A DNA stretch of 64,000 nt from Candidatus Omnitrophota bacterium (lineage in GTDB: Bacteria; Omnitrophota; Gorgyraeia; Duberdicusellales; 4484-171), in NCBI GenBank assembly GCA_021735445.1, contig JAIPHA010000003.1:903-64902 (forward strand), in the 5' to 3' direction. Below are positions 36,264-63,066 of the stretch, in pieces. Position 1 is the first letter of the stretch. Every line of letters begins with the position of its first letter. The notes below the pieces were generated by a model, which searched no databases, had not been told where the DNA came from, and saw only the letters and a program-made list of their open reading frames with translations. A program made the translations under genes and the position numbers.

Positions 36264-36878
36264 ATGGAAATATTAATTACAGCCGGGCCTACCTGGGCGC
36301 AAATCGATAAGGTGAGAATTTTAACCAACCGATTTACGGGTAAAACCGGTCTTTACCTAGCCAATAAGCTAACGGCAGCAGGCCATAAGGTTACTTTGAT
36401 CGTAAACCCTTATTCACTCGGTAAGGTTGCAGGTATAAAAAGTTATTATTTTCATTATTTTGATCAGTTTAAAGATAAAATAACGGATTTGTTAAAAAAT
36501 AATAAATTTGATGCGGTAGTGCATATGGCAGCAGTAAGCGATTATTTACCTAAGTTTAAAGGCGAAGGAAAAATTCCTTCCGGGAAAAAAGATTTTGATA
36601 TTTCTTTGGTTCCGGCTCCAAAAATAATTAAAATTATTCGTAAACTGGCTAAAGAATCTATATTAATTCAATTTAAACTGGAAGTAGAAGAAAAAGGTAT
36701 TATTGATAAGGCCTACGAAAGCCTTAAAAAAAACGATTCAGATTATGTAGTAGCCAATGCTTTAGAATCTTTGGAAGAAGGCTATCAAGCACAATTGATC
36801 GATAAGCAAAAAAATATAATTAGAATCAACTCAAAAGACGATTTAGCCAAAGAAATTAATAACCTCTTAGCTCTATAA
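36264..36878 (+). CDS. coaB: Phosphopantothenate--cysteine ligase (stand-alone CoaB)
   Basis: ITAGPTWAQIDKVRILTNRFTGKTG and AAVSDY motifs of the CoaB half of Dfp. Confidence 0.85.
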   Translation: MEILITAGPTWAQIDKVRILTNRFTGKTGLYLANKLTAAGHKVTLIVNPYSLGKVAGIKSYYFHYFDQFKDKITDLLKNNKFDAVVHMAAVSDYLPKFKGEGKIPSGKKDFDISLVPAPKIIKIIRKLAKESILIQFKLEVEEKGIIDKAYESLKKNDSDYVVANALESLEEGYQAQLIDKQKNIIRINSKDDLAKEINNLLAL

Positions 36879-58549: not shown

Positions 58550-58625
58550 GGTGGGTGTAGCTCAGGGGCAGAGCTCTTGATTGTGGTTCAAGTGGCCGGG
58601 GGTTCAAATCCCCTCACCCACCCCA
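58550..58625 (+). tRNA. tRNA-His (anticodon GTG) with encoded G-1 and CCA
   Basis: GGTGGGT/ACCCACC acceptor including the G-1:C73 pair, anticodon stem CTTGA/TCAAG with loop TTGTGGT, T arm with TTCAAAT loop, and a terminal CCA. Confidence 0.93.
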
Positions 58626-60101
58626 GTTTGGATACAAGGAGCGTTCAGCCAATAGGTTGAACGCTTTTTTGTAATGTGGGTTTAGTTTTTTTCCATCGAG
58701 GGTGCAGTTCGAAAGTACGATATTTAACATTTTAGCTCTTTCGAACTTATTTTGGCGTAAATAGAGGGGGAGGATCTTATTGGCAAATTCAAGAATCTTT
58801 AATCCTTCTTCTGTATAATCAAAATCTTTATTTTGATAATTTATAAGTTTTTCATTGATATTCTTTAATTCTTCCTGCCAATCCGAGCTTAAACTATCAT
58901 AAGTTTCTTCGGGTATTTTTCCGTCTATCTTATCAACATAAATTTTCTCAAGGCGTTTTTTAAGTAAATTCTTTCTTTTTTCAAGATTTTCTGATTGAGC
59001 TTTCCGGTATTCACATTGATCTTTATTTTCATTTTTAAAAACTTTCCGGCAATGATTTAATAATTCTTCATCTATACTTATTTTTTTTATTGCCTGAAAC
59101 AACATATCTGCGATCTTTTCTTCTCTTACATAAGTTAACTTACAGCCTCTATAACCTGTACAGCGATAATAAATAAATTTTTCTTTATGTATTTCTGCAG
59201 TAATAGAGGAACCACATTTAGCGCACTTTAGAAGGCCGGCATAGGCAAACCTCCTTTTTCGTAGTCTATGGGGCTTATTGAAGCGCTGAAATGATTTTTG
59301 GACCATATTAAAAAGCTTCTTAGATATCAGAGGAATATGCTTTCCTTGGCAAAGTTTTCCACTCCAATAGAAAGAACCAGTATAAAAAATATTTTTTAGC
59401 ATTTTATCAATAAAAGAAGTATGGATTTTTTTACCGGTCCTTGAACGAAGGCCTTCTTCATTAGCTATATCTCTCATCCTTTTAAGCGAATATTGTCCTG
59501 TAGAATATAATTCAAATAATCTCTTTATAAGGGGAGCTCGAGTTTGATCAATTTCAATTGTTTTTAAAACCCGATCATTTTCTTTTTTAGTTACATTTTT
59601 ATAACCTAGTGGAGCAAGGCCGGGGAATATTCCTTCCTGGGCTTTTTGATTCATCCCTTTCTTGCTTTCTTCAGAAAGGTTATCAATATAATGTTTAGCT
59701 ATTAAAGCTTTAAAGCCAAACATAAGTTTATCGCTTGATCTGGAATGTTTATCTAAAACAAAATTCTCTTTTACTAAGATGATTTTTATATCGGATTCAT
59801 TAATTAATGAATCTAATGTAGCTATATCTTTGAAATTGCGAGATAGCCGATCAGTTTTTTCACAAAGAACAATTTTAATTTGACGATTTTTCTTTAAGAA
59901 CTTGACCATATCAACAAAATTTTTCCGTCCGGATTGTTTTGCTGATTCTATATCAACAAATTCTTTAACTACAGAATATTTATTTTTTAATGCATGATCA
60001 TAAAGATATTTTTTCTGGGCAGGAATAGAATAACCTTCTTGTTCTTGCTCTTTGCTTGAAACTCGGGCATATAGGATTGCTTTTTCCATCTTAATTTGCA
60101 T
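58614..60101 (-). CDS. Large serine recombinase (integrase)
   Basis: N-terminal resolvase domain with catalytic Ser (AILYARVSSKEQ), a recombinase domain, a zinc ribbon (CAKCGSS...YYRCTGYRGC) and a coiled coil. The last 12 nt lie inside tRNA-His. Confidence 0.9.
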   Translation of the reverse strand: MQIKMEKAILYARVSSKEQEQEGYSIPAQKKYLYDHALKNKYSVVKEFVDIESAKQSGRKNFVDMVKFLKKNRQIKIVLCEKTDRLSRNFKDIATLDSLINESDIKIILVKENFVLDKHSRSSDKLMFGFKALIAKHYIDNLSEESKKGMNQKAQEGIFPGLAPLGYKNVTKKENDRVLKTIEIDQTRAPLIKRLFELYSTGQYSLKRMRDIANEEGLRSRTGKKIHTSFIDKMLKNIFYTGSFYWSGKLCQGKHIPLISKKLFNMVQKSFQRFNKPHRLRKRRFAYAGLLKCAKCGSSITAEIHKEKFIYYRCTGYRGCKLTYVREEKIADMLFQAIKKISIDEELLNHCRKVFKNENKDQCEYRKAQSENLEKRKNLLKKRLEKIYVDKIDGKIPEETYDSLSSDWQEELKNINEKLINYQNKDFDYTEEGLKILEFANKILPLYLRQNKFERAKMLNIVLSNCTLDGKKLNPHYKKAFNLLAERSLYPNWGG

Positions 60102-60140
60102 TATATTAATTTAATTATTTATATCAAGTTTAATTTATTT

Positions 60141-60437
60141 TTAAAAGCAAGGCCAAATATCATTTTTAATTTCTTCACACCTTAAACATTTTTTGCTATT
60201 GCAACCTTTTTTGTCTAAATATGCTAGTCTAATTTCTCCTTTTTGACTTAATTTATACCTACCAAAGCAATCTTTTTTAACTAGATTTTGTTTTTCTAAA
60301 AAAAGTAAATAAGATATTGCTCCTGATTTACTATGGTTAAAGTCTTTTATAATGTCTTTATAGTCTATAACTTCTTTTTCGTTTATAAAAGCTAAAACCA
60401 AATGTTTAATTTTTTTATTTTGTTTTTGCATTTTCAT
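60141..60437 (-). CDS. Small winged-helix DNA-binding protein with a C-terminal Cys cluster
   Basis: MarR/ArsR-like recognition region (GAISYLLFLEKQNLVKKDCFGRYKLSQKGE) and CNSKKCLRCEE...WPC. Confidence 0.5.
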   Translation of the reverse strand: MKMQKQNKKIKHLVLAFINEKEVIDYKDIIKDFNHSKSGAISYLLFLEKQNLVKKDCFGRYKLSQKGEIRLAYLDKKGCNSKKCLRCEEIKNDIWPCF

Positions 60438-60484
60438 ACCTCCTTTTAAGCTAGTTTAATTTTCTATATTAAATCGATTTATTT

Positions 60485-61267
60485 TTAATTAAGATTTATA
60501 TTTTTGTAATCATTTTTATTTAAGCGAAAGTCTTTTAATTCTTTTTCTAATTCAAATTCAATTATCCAACTATCGTTCCCACATTTTTCACATTTGAGTT
60601 TACTTTTTAAAGGTTTATTGCCATACAAGCTTCCAAATGGTTGTATCAAACGACTTTTCTTAAGAACTCTGTTATATACTTCTTCTTTTCCGTTTACTTT
60701 AGGTGGTTTAAAAAAATACTTAAGAATATACTTAAGGCCTTTTTTAGGGGTATGAGCTTTTCTTATATCTACTATGGGGCTGTCTCCAGTTAATTCTAAC
60801 CAATCCCTTGATATTTTTTGTTGGGGAAGATATCCTTCCTTTTTTGAGCTAGCTTCAATTAGAGCATGAATATGAATATTCCAACCTCGTCCTTTATTCG
60901 TTATTTCAATTACATACAGTCCGCCTTTGATTCTTCTTTTATAATATTTTTTTCTTAAGAACTTGTTAAAACATTTTCTAATAAACTTTATATCTTTTTT
61001 ATCTAAATAAGATTTATTTTTAATAGTTAAAGTTAACAATTTCGGATTAACCATAGGTTTAACTAATTCCAACCAACCTTTTAAAAGTTTAAAATAAGTT
61101 CTTCTGCGACATTCCGGACAAGTTCGATCGCTGCATTTAAGTTTTACCATTACCGGTTCTCCACATTGTCCACAATAGAGAGTTATAGTCCGATGTGAAC
61201 TTATTCCAGTATTATCAAGTGAAGAACTATTATCATTATTAATTAATTTAAATTCATCTGTAATCAT
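60485..61267 (-). CDS. HUH rolling-circle replication initiator-like endonuclease with zinc ribbons
   Basis: The three RCR motifs occur in order: KLLTLTIKN (motif 1), WNIHIHALIE (HUH) and LKYILKYFFKP (YxxxY). There is an N-terminal CGQCG...CPEC and a C-terminal CEKCG. Confidence 0.65.
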   Translation of the reverse strand: MITDEFKLINNDNSSSLDNTGISSHRTITLYCGQCGEPVMVKLKCSDRTCPECRRRTYFKLLKGWLELVKPMVNPKLLTLTIKNKSYLDKKDIKFIRKCFNKFLRKKYYKRRIKGGLYVIEITNKGRGWNIHIHALIEASSKKEGYLPQQKISRDWLELTGDSPIVDIRKAHTPKKGLKYILKYFFKPPKVNGKEEVYNRVLKKSRLIQPFGSLYGNKPLKSKLKCEKCGNDSWIIEFELEKELKDFRLNKNDYKNINLN

Positions 61268-61282
61268 AATATAGCCTCACTG

Positions 61283-61392
61283 AAGGGATTCTTTTGGGCC
61301 AATGCACCCGGAAAGCCCTGGCGGGCTCCCCGGGTCCCTGCATTGACCGGCCACCCCAATTGGGTCTGGCCCCTTCGGGAGAGAAGATCCCT
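61283..61392. other. GC-rich structured island (candidate ncRNA/leader, or double-strand origin for the adjacent Rep)
   Basis: Closing stem aagggat 61283-89 with atccctt 61386-92; a three-tier hairpin at 61297-61352 (agccc-tggc-gggct tip); palindrome cccaattggg at 61355-64; a c-ttcg-g mini-hairpin near 61373-78. The base composition is far more GC-rich than the flanks. Confidence 0.6.
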
Positions 61393-61417
61393 TTTAGAAA
61401 CTCTGTCCGAAGGATTT

Positions 61418-61693
61418 TTAATTTTTACTGTTTTCATATTCTTCTAGGATGTCTTTTGTTAATTCTGCTTTTAAGCCTTTGCTTAATTCCAGAAGATCAA
61501 AGTATTTAGTTTGTCCATTTTTTCGGTAAACTATTTGAGGAAAACCAACCCAGGGGCCGGAGCCTTCTCCTTCAATAACCCGGAAGCTTTTAATACTTAT
61601 CTCTCCCTGTTCTGTAATCCAGGAAACACTAGCAAAAGCCTTAAGTGCTCCTGAATTTTCTAATCTTTTTAAACTTATTGTTTTGTTTTTCAT
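61418..61693 (-). CDS. SpoVG-like nucleic-acid-binding protein
   Basis: LKAFASVSW...FRVIEGEGSGPWVGFP...LTKDILEEY aligns by eye with the B. subtilis SpoVG pattern RMRAIASITL...IRVIDGNNGLFVAMP...AVLNEY. Confidence 0.6.
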   Translation of the reverse strand: MKNKTISLKRLENSGALKAFASVSWITEQGEISIKSFRVIEGEGSGPWVGFPQIVYRKNGQTKYFDLLELSKGLKAELTKDILEEYENSKN

Positions 61694-61773
61694 TTTTTCT
61701 CCTTTTTTAAAATTAGTTATTATTTTTAATCCTAAAAATTAACGGGGGATGGAGGTGACCTTATACAATACAT

Positions 61774-61923
61774 TTAATCTCCTTTTTTGCTTTGCCATTC
61801 GATTAACAACTTGATAAACTCCAGACAGTCCCGATTTATTTCTTCCGCCTCAGCTTCTGAAATACGATAGCCAAGCCGGCGTGAGAAAATTTCGATTGTT
61901 TTTTGAATAAGTTTTTGATTCAT
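61774..61923 (-). CDS. 49-aa hypothetical protein (below the ORF-track size cut-off)
   Basis: The minus strand reads MNQKLIQKTIEIFSRRLGYRISEAEAEEINRDCLEFIKLLIEWQSKKGD-stop. It is co-directional with, and lies between, two element genes. Confidence 0.4.
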   Translation of the reverse strand: MNQKLIQKTIEIFSRRLGYRISEAEAEEINRDCLEFIKLLIEWQSKKGD

Positions 61924-62017
61924 TTTTTACCAAAGAATTATTTATCCCTCGGTAAAAAATATATCATCTGAATAGGATATTGAAGAGGTGATAGTAAGGG
62001 GAGGGGGGTTATTTTTC

Positions 62018-62851
62018 TTAAATTAGATCTTTGTAGCCGCTATTTATTAAATCAAGACACTTGTTATAACCAATCATAACTTTTCTTTTAGTATTCTCCG
62101 GAAATATTTCTTTAGGATATACTTTCTTTGCTATTTTTCTCCAACCTATACCGGATTCTCTTAGATCGTAGATAGCGAGGTAATTAAGGTATTCTTCAAG
62201 TCTTGCCCTTGTATTTTTTTTCTTTGGTTGGCTTCTTTTGGCACTATCTATAAAAAATTCAACTGTGGCTAAAATCATCGGTTTTGGATATTTTAAATTT
62301 ATAGAAACATTCAGGATATTTTGATTTGTCTTTTTTTTGTTCATTAGATGAGGAAGAATTATAAAAGCCGGTAAAATTGCATTATCTCCTAAAGAAGTTT
62401 TTTGCGCACTTTGTAAAAATCCCATAAGTAGAAAGAAAAAATACTCGAACTTATCAATAAAAATGGTTTCCCCCAAATTGGTTACCCATTTTTCAGGATC
62501 GTCAATAACAAGTTCATCTATGTTTTCAATTCCAAAAGAGGGGCTAAATAAAACAGGCATTTCCCATTTTTTTAGTAATTCTAAATAACGGGTGAGAGCT
62601 TTCTCCCATTGTCGGTGATCTCCGAAAATTTTTTCCCATTGCTGCATTTGTTCGAATGGAGGTGTTTTATTCTTGTAAGAGCTATTAACTATTTTTTTTA
62701 TCTTTTTTCTATCTATTTTTACGTTACCAAAAAATTCATCTATAGGTTTAAAGTCTTTTATAAAATCAGTGTTTCTCCTTAAAAATTCCCATTTATACAG
62801 AAAAACTAGTAATTCACGTTTCCCGGCTTCAATCTTTTCTTTTTTACGCAT
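62018..62851 (-). CDS. Mobile-element regulator-like protein with an N-terminal WEFLRRN motif and a C-terminal HTH-like region
   Basis: YKWEFLRRNTDF resembles the DUF6499-type motif of ICE regulators. The C-terminal LEEYLNYLAIYDLRESGIGWRKIAKKV resembles a DUF2285-type HTH. Both are recalled family patterns and were not searched. Confidence 0.4.
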   Translation of the reverse strand: MRKKEKIEAGKRELLVFLYKWEFLRRNTDFIKDFKPIDEFFGNVKIDRKKIKKIVNSSYKNKTPPFEQMQQWEKIFGDHRQWEKALTRYLELLKKWEMPVLFSPSFGIENIDELVIDDPEKWVTNLGETIFIDKFEYFFFLLMGFLQSAQKTSLGDNAILPAFIILPHLMNKKKTNQNILNVSINLKYPKPMILATVEFFIDSAKRSQPKKKNTRARLEEYLNYLAIYDLRESGIGWRKIAKKVYPKEIFPENTKRKVMIGYNKCLDLINSGYKDLI

Positions 62852-63066
62852 ATTTATTATTATAGCAATATTTCATATTATTTAAACTAGCTTATAAGTA
62901 TACAAAATTTATTATTTTTTAGGGTTTGAGCTTTAGATGTAAAGGTGGTAAAATTAACAAAAAGCATGTTTTTTGATTACATTCAGTTATGGGAGTAGGG
63001 TTTTTATTGCTTTGTTTAAAATTTGAGCATCTGGATTTTATTTTTTATAAGTAATAATATATTATT

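Follow-up and report, generated by a model that had tools for sequence, protein, structure and literature searches.

A folded, covarying island 5' of the predicted Rep nick site in an integrative element of Candidatus Omnitrophota: a candidate single-strand origin

The locus described here lies on the minus strand of a 64,000-nucleotide stretch (the window) of contig JAIPHA010000003.1 from a Candidatus Omnitrophota bacterium, within an integrative element of about 4.3 kb. The genes of the element are all encoded on that strand, in the order of a 277-aa open reading frame (ORF), a 49-aa ORF, a SpoVG-like gene, a non-coding island, the gene for the replication initiator Rep, a small winged-helix (wHTH) gene, and a serine recombinase gene. 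A preliminary description of the sequence had placed the island between a SpoVG-like gene and a Rep gene, and Pfam searches confirmed both neighbors (PF04026, E 1.3e-7; Rep_1, PF01446, E 3.6e-12). Rep, which also matched REP_ORF2-G2P (E 2.6e-8), is a rolling-circle initiator of the HUH type (HIHAL) with two tyrosines (YILKY) and an N-terminal zinc ribbon; H132 and H134 of the HUH motif, Y180, and Y184 were invariant among the Rep homologues. The island is a conserved folded domain located 5' of the predicted nick site of Rep on the same strand, and a single-strand origin (sso) is the function that we consider most likely for it.

The GC content was 0.63 at 61300-61399 and 0.16-0.35 in the flanks, compared with a background of about 0.25, and in sliding windows the island was the most structured stretch across the whole 4.3 kb, which bears out the initial impression of a GC-rich, strongly folded island in AT-rich surroundings. 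Folded as RNA, the minus strand (the rep sense) of 61270-61410 reached -71.2 kcal/mol (z -4.72), with none of 200 dinucleotide shuffles as good, and the plus strand reached -59.6 (z -2.59). With DNA parameters, the 131-nt unit at 61283-61413 gave -34.8 on the minus and -31.6 on the plus strand (z -4.25 and -3.29, respectively), and the minus-strand DNA fold consisted of exactly three hairpins, H1, P2, and P3. Read 5' to 3' in the rep sense, the parts of the unit are as follows.

61407-61413, minus strand: 5' strand of the outer stem of H1, CCTTCGG, paired with 61372-61378 in the RNA and DNA folds and covarying in ten homologues
61387-61393, minus strand: 5' arm of the pseudoknot, AAGGGAT, within the apical loop of H1 and complementary to 61283-61289; eight different arm sequences occur in ten homologues, each with a complementary partner
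61372-61378, minus strand: 3' strand of the outer stem of H1, CCGAAGG, supported by the RNA and DNA folds and by covariation
61349-61371, minus strand: hairpin P2, GGCCA-GA-CCC-AATT-GGG-G-TGGCC, present in the folds, with covarying outer pairs
61297-61348, minus strand: hairpin P3, long and two-tiered (10 + 12 bp) with the loop GCCA, present in the folds, with compensatory changes
61290-61296, minus strand: A-rich linker CAAAAGA, CAAAAAGA-like in all members
61283-61289, minus strand: 3' arm of the pseudoknot, ATCCCTT

H1 also has an inner stem, and its 5' strand begins 4 nt past the SpoVG-like stop codon in the window. At the other end, the island finishes 4 nt before the rep Shine-Dalgarno (SD) sequence GAGG (61275-61278) and 15 nt before the ATG (61265-61267), the latter being the distance that had been assigned to the ribosome-binding site (RBS). 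The 7-bp closing stem of the preliminary description was found, although the partner of its 3' strand is 61387-61393 and not 61386-61392, one base away; because this stem is the pairing of the H1 loop with the tail, the fold is a pseudoknot rather than a plain stem. The long hairpin was likewise present but ends at 61348 instead of 61352, and the palindrome cccaattggg (61355-61364) forms the tip of P2. What had been taken for a UUCG-type mini-hairpin is the 3' strand of H1, whose 5' strand lies outside the island as first delimited (61283-61392), so that these limits were too short on the 5' side. The alternative pairing of the ggcc tract at 61349-61352, previously suggested to act as a switch, exists in the window sequence but was not conserved in relatives.

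Rep-alone searches of genomes and viral contigs found nothing, IMG/VR contained essentially none of these elements, and related loci (given L numbers here) were recovered with a Rep alignment as the query. Homologous units were identified in ten distinct elements (the window element, or WIN, and L102, L099, L100, L101, L103, L109, L113, L003, and L107), the Rep proteins of which are 47-62% identical and the units of which measure 105-139 nt. The relatives keep the synteny of a 250-277-aa ORF, a small ORF, the SpoVG-like gene, a non-coding gap, Rep, a small HTH gene, and the serine recombinase. All four helices (H1, P2, P3, and the pseudoknot) are kept through compensatory changes in the ten members. 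In particular, the tail, which is 6-9 nt long, is complementary to a block within the apical loop of H1, and the two arms vary but stay complementary: AAGGGAT/ATCCCTT, AAGGGT/ACCCTT, AAGATTT/AAATCTT, GACGAT/ATCGTC, GACTAT/ATAGTC, GACAATCT/AGATTGTC, AACGATT/AATCGTT, GGGAGGTCT/AGACCTCCC, and CGGGGGAT/ATCCCCCG. When loops and tails were compared with shuffled sequences, the combined p was about 6e-9.

RNAalifold, applied to plain MAFFT alignments of two subgroups, independently predicted the pseudoknot stem and P3 with compensatory changes; the MAFFT alignment of all members was not structural, and RNAalifold gave no structure on it. In a hand alignment, the four helices paired in 98-100% of the cells against 12-63% in slid controls, figures that are themselves fitted, as they were computed on an alignment adjusted by hand. 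With a covariance model trained on no sequence other than that of the window, L001 (92 bits), L099 (70 bits), L100 (E 5e-5), and L003 (E 8e-4) were found. In a second alignment, fitted to the covariance model, 96% of the cells paired, 36 of the 41 pairs had double changes, none of 500 shuffles reached this level, and slid controls paired in 38-65% of the cells. A loose structural descriptor produced hundreds of chance matches, and a stricter one recovered all known members; the only extra descriptor candidates, L018 and L028, were rejected because they have a different, simpler hairpin.

These substitutions leave almost no room for the reading of the island as protein-coding or as a chance GC-rich patch. 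ORFs of 71 aa (plus strand, 61294-61509) and 57 aa (minus strand, 61264-61437) do cross it, but neither is conserved or matches Pfam, none of the frames stays open throughout the members (in L101, stops interrupt all six), and the unit lengths are not all multiples of three. The objection foreseen in the preliminary description, namely that the 61294-61509 ORF might prove to be a conserved protein, thus falls away. Compensatory substitutions in the helices and z-scores of -4.3 to -4.7 argue against both versions of this explanation, to which we attach practically no probability.

The islands also carry internal repeats. In L100, L101, and L109 (e.g., L101:276-345), the 5' strand of P3 recurs in P2 as the block CCACGGTTGG, to which the 3' strand of P3, CTAACCGTGG, is complementary, an arrangement that amounts either to mutually exclusive pairings or to direct and inverted repeats. 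A weaker version of this repetition is found in the window, with CCAATTG set against CCAATGC.

In line with the preliminary description, which had matched the island to no RNA family, it did not correspond to any family in Rfam. Rfam 15 at the gathering threshold yielded only tRNAs and no family for the island, and a search of 61150-61550 at E<=10 yielded only noise, the best match being RT-3, off the island, at 16.5 bits against a gathering score of 40.5. No terminator-like site was detected inside the island in a promoter/terminator scan, P3 being followed by CAAAAGA and not by a U-run, and promoter-like sites were at the chance level (21 found vs 20.6 expected). These results bear on the idea of a stand-alone small RNA, or of the target or template of an antisense copy-control RNA such as pMV158 RNAII or that of pT181. 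The island occupies the place, after a small upstream gene and before rep, from which rolling-circle plasmids encode counter-transcripts, both of its strands fold well, and H1 of the window read on the plus strand is followed by ATTTTTAATTTTT. However, the antisense T-run after H1 is not conserved in other members, and neither the promoter signals nor the Rfam searches favor such an RNA, which would also leave the link to the nick motif in distant clades, described below, unexplained. We regard this explanation as very improbable.

The position of the domain between the flanking genes at first favored a role in the rep mRNA. The stop codon of the upstream gene lies -6 to +5 nt from H1 in nine of the ten members, including L107, in which the upstream gene is not SpoVG-like; the pseudoknot ends 8-20 nt before the rep ATG in eight members; and in five, the first base of the SD is found 3-4 nt past the pseudoknot. 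Under this explanation, a pseudoknot in the SpoVG-rep intercistronic mRNA would gate the translation of Rep and thereby control the copy number: a ribosome terminating at the upstream stop codon would melt H1, and the fold, possibly helped by the SpoVG-like protein, Rep, or a ligand, would set ribosome access or re-initiation. The co-directional operon that contains the domain leaves no space for a promoter in front of rep, the other intergenic gaps of the element (39-94 nt) are unstructured, and the A-rich linker and a U-rich loop segment fit an H-type RNA pseudoknot. A precedent is provided by IncI1/IncB plasmids, in which, according to PMC8053102, rep translation needs a pseudoknot beside the rep RBS; pairing of this type, between a loop and the flank of the RBS, was seen in eight of the ten window-clade members but not in L003, L107, or the distant clades. 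Several members do not fit the explanation. The domain is 61 nt from the rep ATG in L003 and 112 nt in L107, L003 has no upstream ORF ending nearby, L106 has a shortened version inside the called rep ORF, and two members lack an SD. Furthermore, the hairpin loops and junctions have few invariant bases, unlike riboswitch aptamers, and conserved antisense promoters or terminators were not detected.

The constant partner of the domain proved to be the nick site. A Rep_1-type nick motif, TTCACTTGATA, is located at 61213-61223, 64 nt downstream of the island within the first rep codons, and the predicted nick falls between 61216 and 61215.

61200-61223, minus strand: predicted nick region of the double-strand origin (dso), TTCACTTG-nick-ATAATACTGGAATAAG, in rep codons 15-22 (SSLD)

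The conserved residues SSLD near the N-terminus of Rep are encoded by TTCACTTGATA, which is followed by N6 and GGAATAAG (61223-61200). The DNA motif was present in every relative, and in L003 it lies upstream of the rep ATG in non-coding sequence, indicating that it is a DNA signal rather than a protein constraint; the protein motif SSLD is probably a by-product of this signal. In every window-clade member, the domain is followed on its own strand by the nick consensus, at a distance of 35-182 nt. Rep_1 proteins recognize CTTGATA as their nick site (PMC10378824), and the island itself contains no such consensus. As TTCACTTGATA is 64 nt away and the hairpin loops lack conserved sequence, the island is not the nick site or dso proper, as had been proposed as one option in the preliminary description.

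The same association was found in distant Rep clades. Weak matches to the window-only model (E 0.04-3) turned up in six distant Rep loci, each of them on the strand of rep and downstream of that gene. At least 25 distant loci carry a GC-rich domain with a strong fold immediately 5' of (C/T)NACTTGAT, 130-650 nt downstream of rep, with the motif itself 230-650 nt downstream of rep; in the 110 nt directly 5' of the motif, the GC content is 0.63-0.74 and the folding energy is about -0.5 to -0.6 kcal/mol per nt, and the domain is >60 nt from the next start codon. The parts of this distant module are ordered similarly to those of the window clade: hairpin X is followed by the conserved linker GGGGATATAC, a variable hairpin, and hairpin Z, after which come an A-run, a tail, a spacer, and, just before the nick, a GC hairpin (N). 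The tail is complementary to the loop of hairpin X, and the arms covary between subclades (ACCCTT/AAGGGT, CCCCT/AGGGG, TCAGACT/AGTCTGA, and CCCGTTT/AAACGGG). A model trained on one distant subclade retrieved a further 16 loci at E<=5.5e-4, again without exception downstream of rep and on its strand. Eight of these were inspected, and the nick motif followed wherever the flanking sequence sufficed. Hairpin N and the nick are nearly identical in L003, L004, L106, and L107 of the window clade and in L037 and L039 of the distant clade, which ties the two arrangements together. The presence of an equivalently built domain beside the nick motif and away from rep shows that its partner is the nick site and not the rep start, and this changed our interpretation. 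A cis-regulatory leader, as considered at the outset, is still a live rival for the window clade, though weakened by this arrangement, and we judge the mRNA explanation possible but well short of probable.

The distant module (L038-L068, L015-L034, and others; e.g., L049:1098-1288 and L025:3751-3990) is roughly 200 nt long, highly conserved, and non-coding, with the invariant blocks GGGGATATACGGGGAGGG, CCCTCCCCGG, TTAAAAAGGG, CCCGGGGGCTTCCCCCGGG, and ACTTGATT..TACAACATC. A coding explanation for it was rejected because the frames switch between close relatives. It contains CGGGGAGGG twice, both copies being complementary to a single CCCTCCCCG, with G-C to A-T covariation between subclades, which suggests alternative pairings or iteron-like repeats. 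In L015, L018, L025, and L019, nothing but a simple GC hairpin with A- and T-runs on its sides, resembling a terminator, is found between the upstream ORF and rep, and the complex module is located in another part of these elements. Bins of Rokubacteria, NC10, Aminicenantes, Thermoplasmatota, and Nanoarchaeia are the source of the distant members, and the window element belongs with them to a broad and apparently undescribed group of integrative Rep_1 elements of uncultivated bacteria and archaea.

The proximity to the nick could also mean that the domain is an accessory part of the dso, in which the folded or extruded domain or its repeat blocks would be bound by Rep, perhaps via the zinc ribbon, for loading or termination, comparable to relaxase-bound hairpins 5' of nic or to the bind locus of pMV158. 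The domain is constantly close to the nick motif on the same strand and co-varies with the Rep lineage, a GC hairpin lies 6-10 nt 5' of the nick in the GC-rich members and in the plasmid pPP81, and blocks occur in two direct copies and one inverted copy in L100, L101, and L109 (CCACGGTTGG / GGTTAGGG / CTAACCGTGG), with the doubled CGGGGAGGG plus CCCTCCCCG in the distant clade. In the AT-rich members, however, the island and the nick are 48-87 nt apart, with rep coding sequence in between. Rep_1 plasmids have a short minimal dso, and L004 has a Rep and a nick motif but no domain. Moreover, the structure rather than the sequence is conserved, and the pseudoknot implies intrastrand folding; as the recognition of a duplex needs neither covarying helices nor a pseudoknot, we consider this explanation weak and improbable.

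Taken together, the evidence makes the island most likely the sso, i.e., the folded, strand-specific, single-stranded part of an origin module, a reading to which we would give about an even chance. What is observed directly is the covarying structure, the strand that bears it and its placement with respect to the nick motif, and the recurrence of the arrangement in distant relatives irrespective of the location of rep; from these we infer that it acts as DNA rather than RNA and that its activity is the priming of the complementary strand. A rolling-circle replicon needs an sso, and the island is non-coding, has extensive intrastrand structure with covarying helices, and precedes TTCACTTGATA on the strand that carries this motif, without exception among the members and the distant clades. 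In the proposed sequence of events, the serine recombinase would excise the 4.3-kb element, and Rep would nick the rep-sense strand at TTCACTTG before ATA (61213-61223), whereupon the nicked strand would be displaced. The island, just 5' of the nick on that strand, would be the last stretch to become single-stranded. The GC hairpins H1, P2, and P3 and the pseudoknot would stay folded within an AT-rich strand coated with single-stranded DNA-binding protein, and the folded domain would be the entry signal for host RNA polymerase or primase, which would prime the complementary strand. It may also help Rep to recognize the regenerated nick site at termination.

Several observations weigh against an sso. 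The CS-6 motif TAGCGT/A was absent from all ten members, and a blastn search of the island against PLSDB gave no match at E<=1 except chance AT-rich ones. The 6-7-bp and often AT-rich pseudoknot, the A-rich linker, and the U/T-rich loop segment are typical of RNA pseudoknots, and such a pseudoknot would be only marginally stable as DNA. The window-clade domain is positioned relative to the stop codon, the rep ATG, and the SD. The G-T counts (24 vs 24) and fold energies showed no consistent strand bias across the family. The relatives L004 and L106 lack the full domain. Finally, the distant-clade model (R2) had no significant match to the window-clade islands, so that any homology of the window and distant domains, as opposed to convergence, rests on their architecture.

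The origin and mRNA readings are not mutually exclusive. With the stop codon of the SpoVG-like gene close on one side and the RBS of rep on the other, the domain necessarily belongs to the leader of the rep mRNA as well, and in the window clade it could have a secondary effect on the translation of Rep. A pseudoknotted nucleic-acid element of a new class might even be used twice, once in single-stranded DNA as the complementary-strand origin of a widespread undescribed family of integrative rolling-circle elements in uncultivated bacteria and archaea and once, in the window clade, in RNA, where the fold would couple the termination of the upstream ORF to Rep initiation, setting the copy number, or would bind a ligand or the SpoVG-like protein; alternatively, it might be purely a new riboswitch-like regulator of Rep. 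We hold this pair of possibilities, taken jointly, to be rather unlikely.

Known ssos are about 160-340 nt long, orientation-specific, and composed of multiple hairpins, with structure mattering more than sequence (PMC5703833, PMC4595007). The island resembles ssoA, ssoU, ssoT, ssoW, the pBAA1 sso with its three stem-loops, and sso1 of ICEBs1 in being non-coding, in its length (roughly 100-200 nt) and several stem-loops, in its fixed orientation on the displaced (nicked) strand and the precedence of structure over sequence (PMC4595007, PMC5703833), and in its occurrence beside the dso of a Rep_1-type replicon, including one in an integrated element. It differs from them in lacking RSB- or CS-6-type motifs and any sequence similarity to known ssos, in having a covarying loop-tail pseudoknot with an A-rich linker, which has not been described for ssos, and in its fixed rather than flexible position.

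In the intergenic region of the Ff phages (M13/f1), hairpins B and C of the minus-strand origin lie immediately 5' of the plus-strand origin nicked by the gene II protein. The island shares with this region a plus-strand cluster of hairpins directly upstream of the initiator nick site, and the Pfam family REP_ORF2-G2P, which the window Rep matches, includes gene II proteins. On the other hand, there is no sequence similarity, the element has no phage structural genes, and the promoter-mimic features of hairpins B and C are not evident. Relatives of Rep occur in pPP81 and pTS236/Sphinx 2.36, small Gram-negative Rep_1 plasmids with Reps that are 30-33% identical to that of the window (pPP81, 31%). 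They share the nick motif (TTTACTTGATA N5 GAAACAA), located between small upstream ORFs and rep, and in pPP81 the most structured window, a 65-nt GC hairpin, lies immediately 5' of TTTACTTGATA. This single long hairpin abuts the nick and does not reproduce the arrangement of H1, P2, P3, and the pseudoknot, and the window model matched it only partially and weakly. Binding and nicking of its dso by RepA has been demonstrated experimentally for pTS236 (PMC3715749).

Pseudoknot-dependent translation of rep in IncI1/IncB plasmids was reportedly described by Asano and Mizobuchi in 1998 and by Praszkier and Pittard in 2002. In the IncI1/IncB/IncK plasmids (repY-repZ and repB-repA), as outlined in PMC8053102, a hairpin lying further upstream pairs through its loop with the sequence that immediately precedes the rep RBS, and the control of rep depends on the translation of an upstream ORF, as may be the case in the window clade. 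Those plasmids are, however, theta replicons with an unrelated Rep, a short leader peptide with a stop codon near the rep start, and an antisense Inc RNA, whereas in the island two large GC hairpins lie within the pseudoknot, there is no sign of an antisense RNA, and in distant relatives the domain goes with the nick site.

Overall, we take the island for a folded element acting in cis at a rolling-circle origin or, should that prove wrong, for a leader of rep, and it matches no known sso class or Rfam family. Rolling-circle replicons need a second origin that is read by the host, yet few sso classes are known, almost all of them from Firmicutes plasmids, and none is known for the small integrative Rep_1 elements that are common in metagenomes of uncultivated lineages. 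As a pseudoknotted domain beside an origin, supported by covariation, the island would provide a searchable marker for such elements and their origins, a defined set of a nick site and a cis-element for vectors in untractable hosts, and a test case for whether pseudoknots and other tertiary folds work in single-stranded DNA. Should its action be that of an RNA, it would be an unannotated structured leader that controls a replication initiator.

The limits of the element were provided by an independent contig, the ends of which match exactly and define a discrete 4.3-kb unit; this contig was seen in two metagenome samples, and the assembly GCA_021735325.1 also matches the window sequence. The Rep protein occurs in that assembly and in the runs SRR12088346/48. 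The remaining features of the element and its border are as follows.

58634-62951, minus strand: integrative element of about 4.3 kb, to which the independent 4318-nt contig L114 is identical (window 62951-58634)
58551-58625: tRNA-His, adjoining the recombinase end of the element
58614-60101, minus strand: large serine recombinase, identified by a Pfam match
60485-61267, minus strand: Rep
61418-61693, minus strand: SpoVG-like gene, directly upstream of the island, with conserved synteny

No long att direct repeats were found around the element, in keeping with a serine recombinase, and PHROGs and PDB searches of the neighboring proteins were uninformative. The relatives L090, L093, L103, L109, and L113 carry or adjoin genes of anti-phage-defense type, namely GmrSD_N, HNH/SAD_SRA, and DUF4411 with Peptidase_M78; ThsB_TIR, SLATT, and HEPN_Apea; RVT_1 with STM3845; and AAA_15/21 with DUF4276. 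In some relatives, a gene for an Ion_trans_2 channel, absent from the window element, is located between the wHTH and recombinase genes. In GC-rich relatives (L106:4001-4918 P0008; P0011 and P0016), gene callers extend Rep through the structured region; these N-terminal extensions are not conserved, and in L106 there is no ATG between the shortened domain and the SLD codons.

Elsewhere in the window, ARAGORN called a 91-nt tRNA-Phe with the anticodon aaa at 36540-36630, where the Rfam tRNA model was silent at the gathering score; this is probably a false positive, or else an unusual or intron-containing tRNA. Within the element, the second most structured stretch is 61862-62031 (z about -4.1, with mononucleotide shuffles), which spans the gap between the 277-aa and 49-aa ORFs and holds the G-run aaggggaggggggtt at about 61988-62003 on the plus strand.

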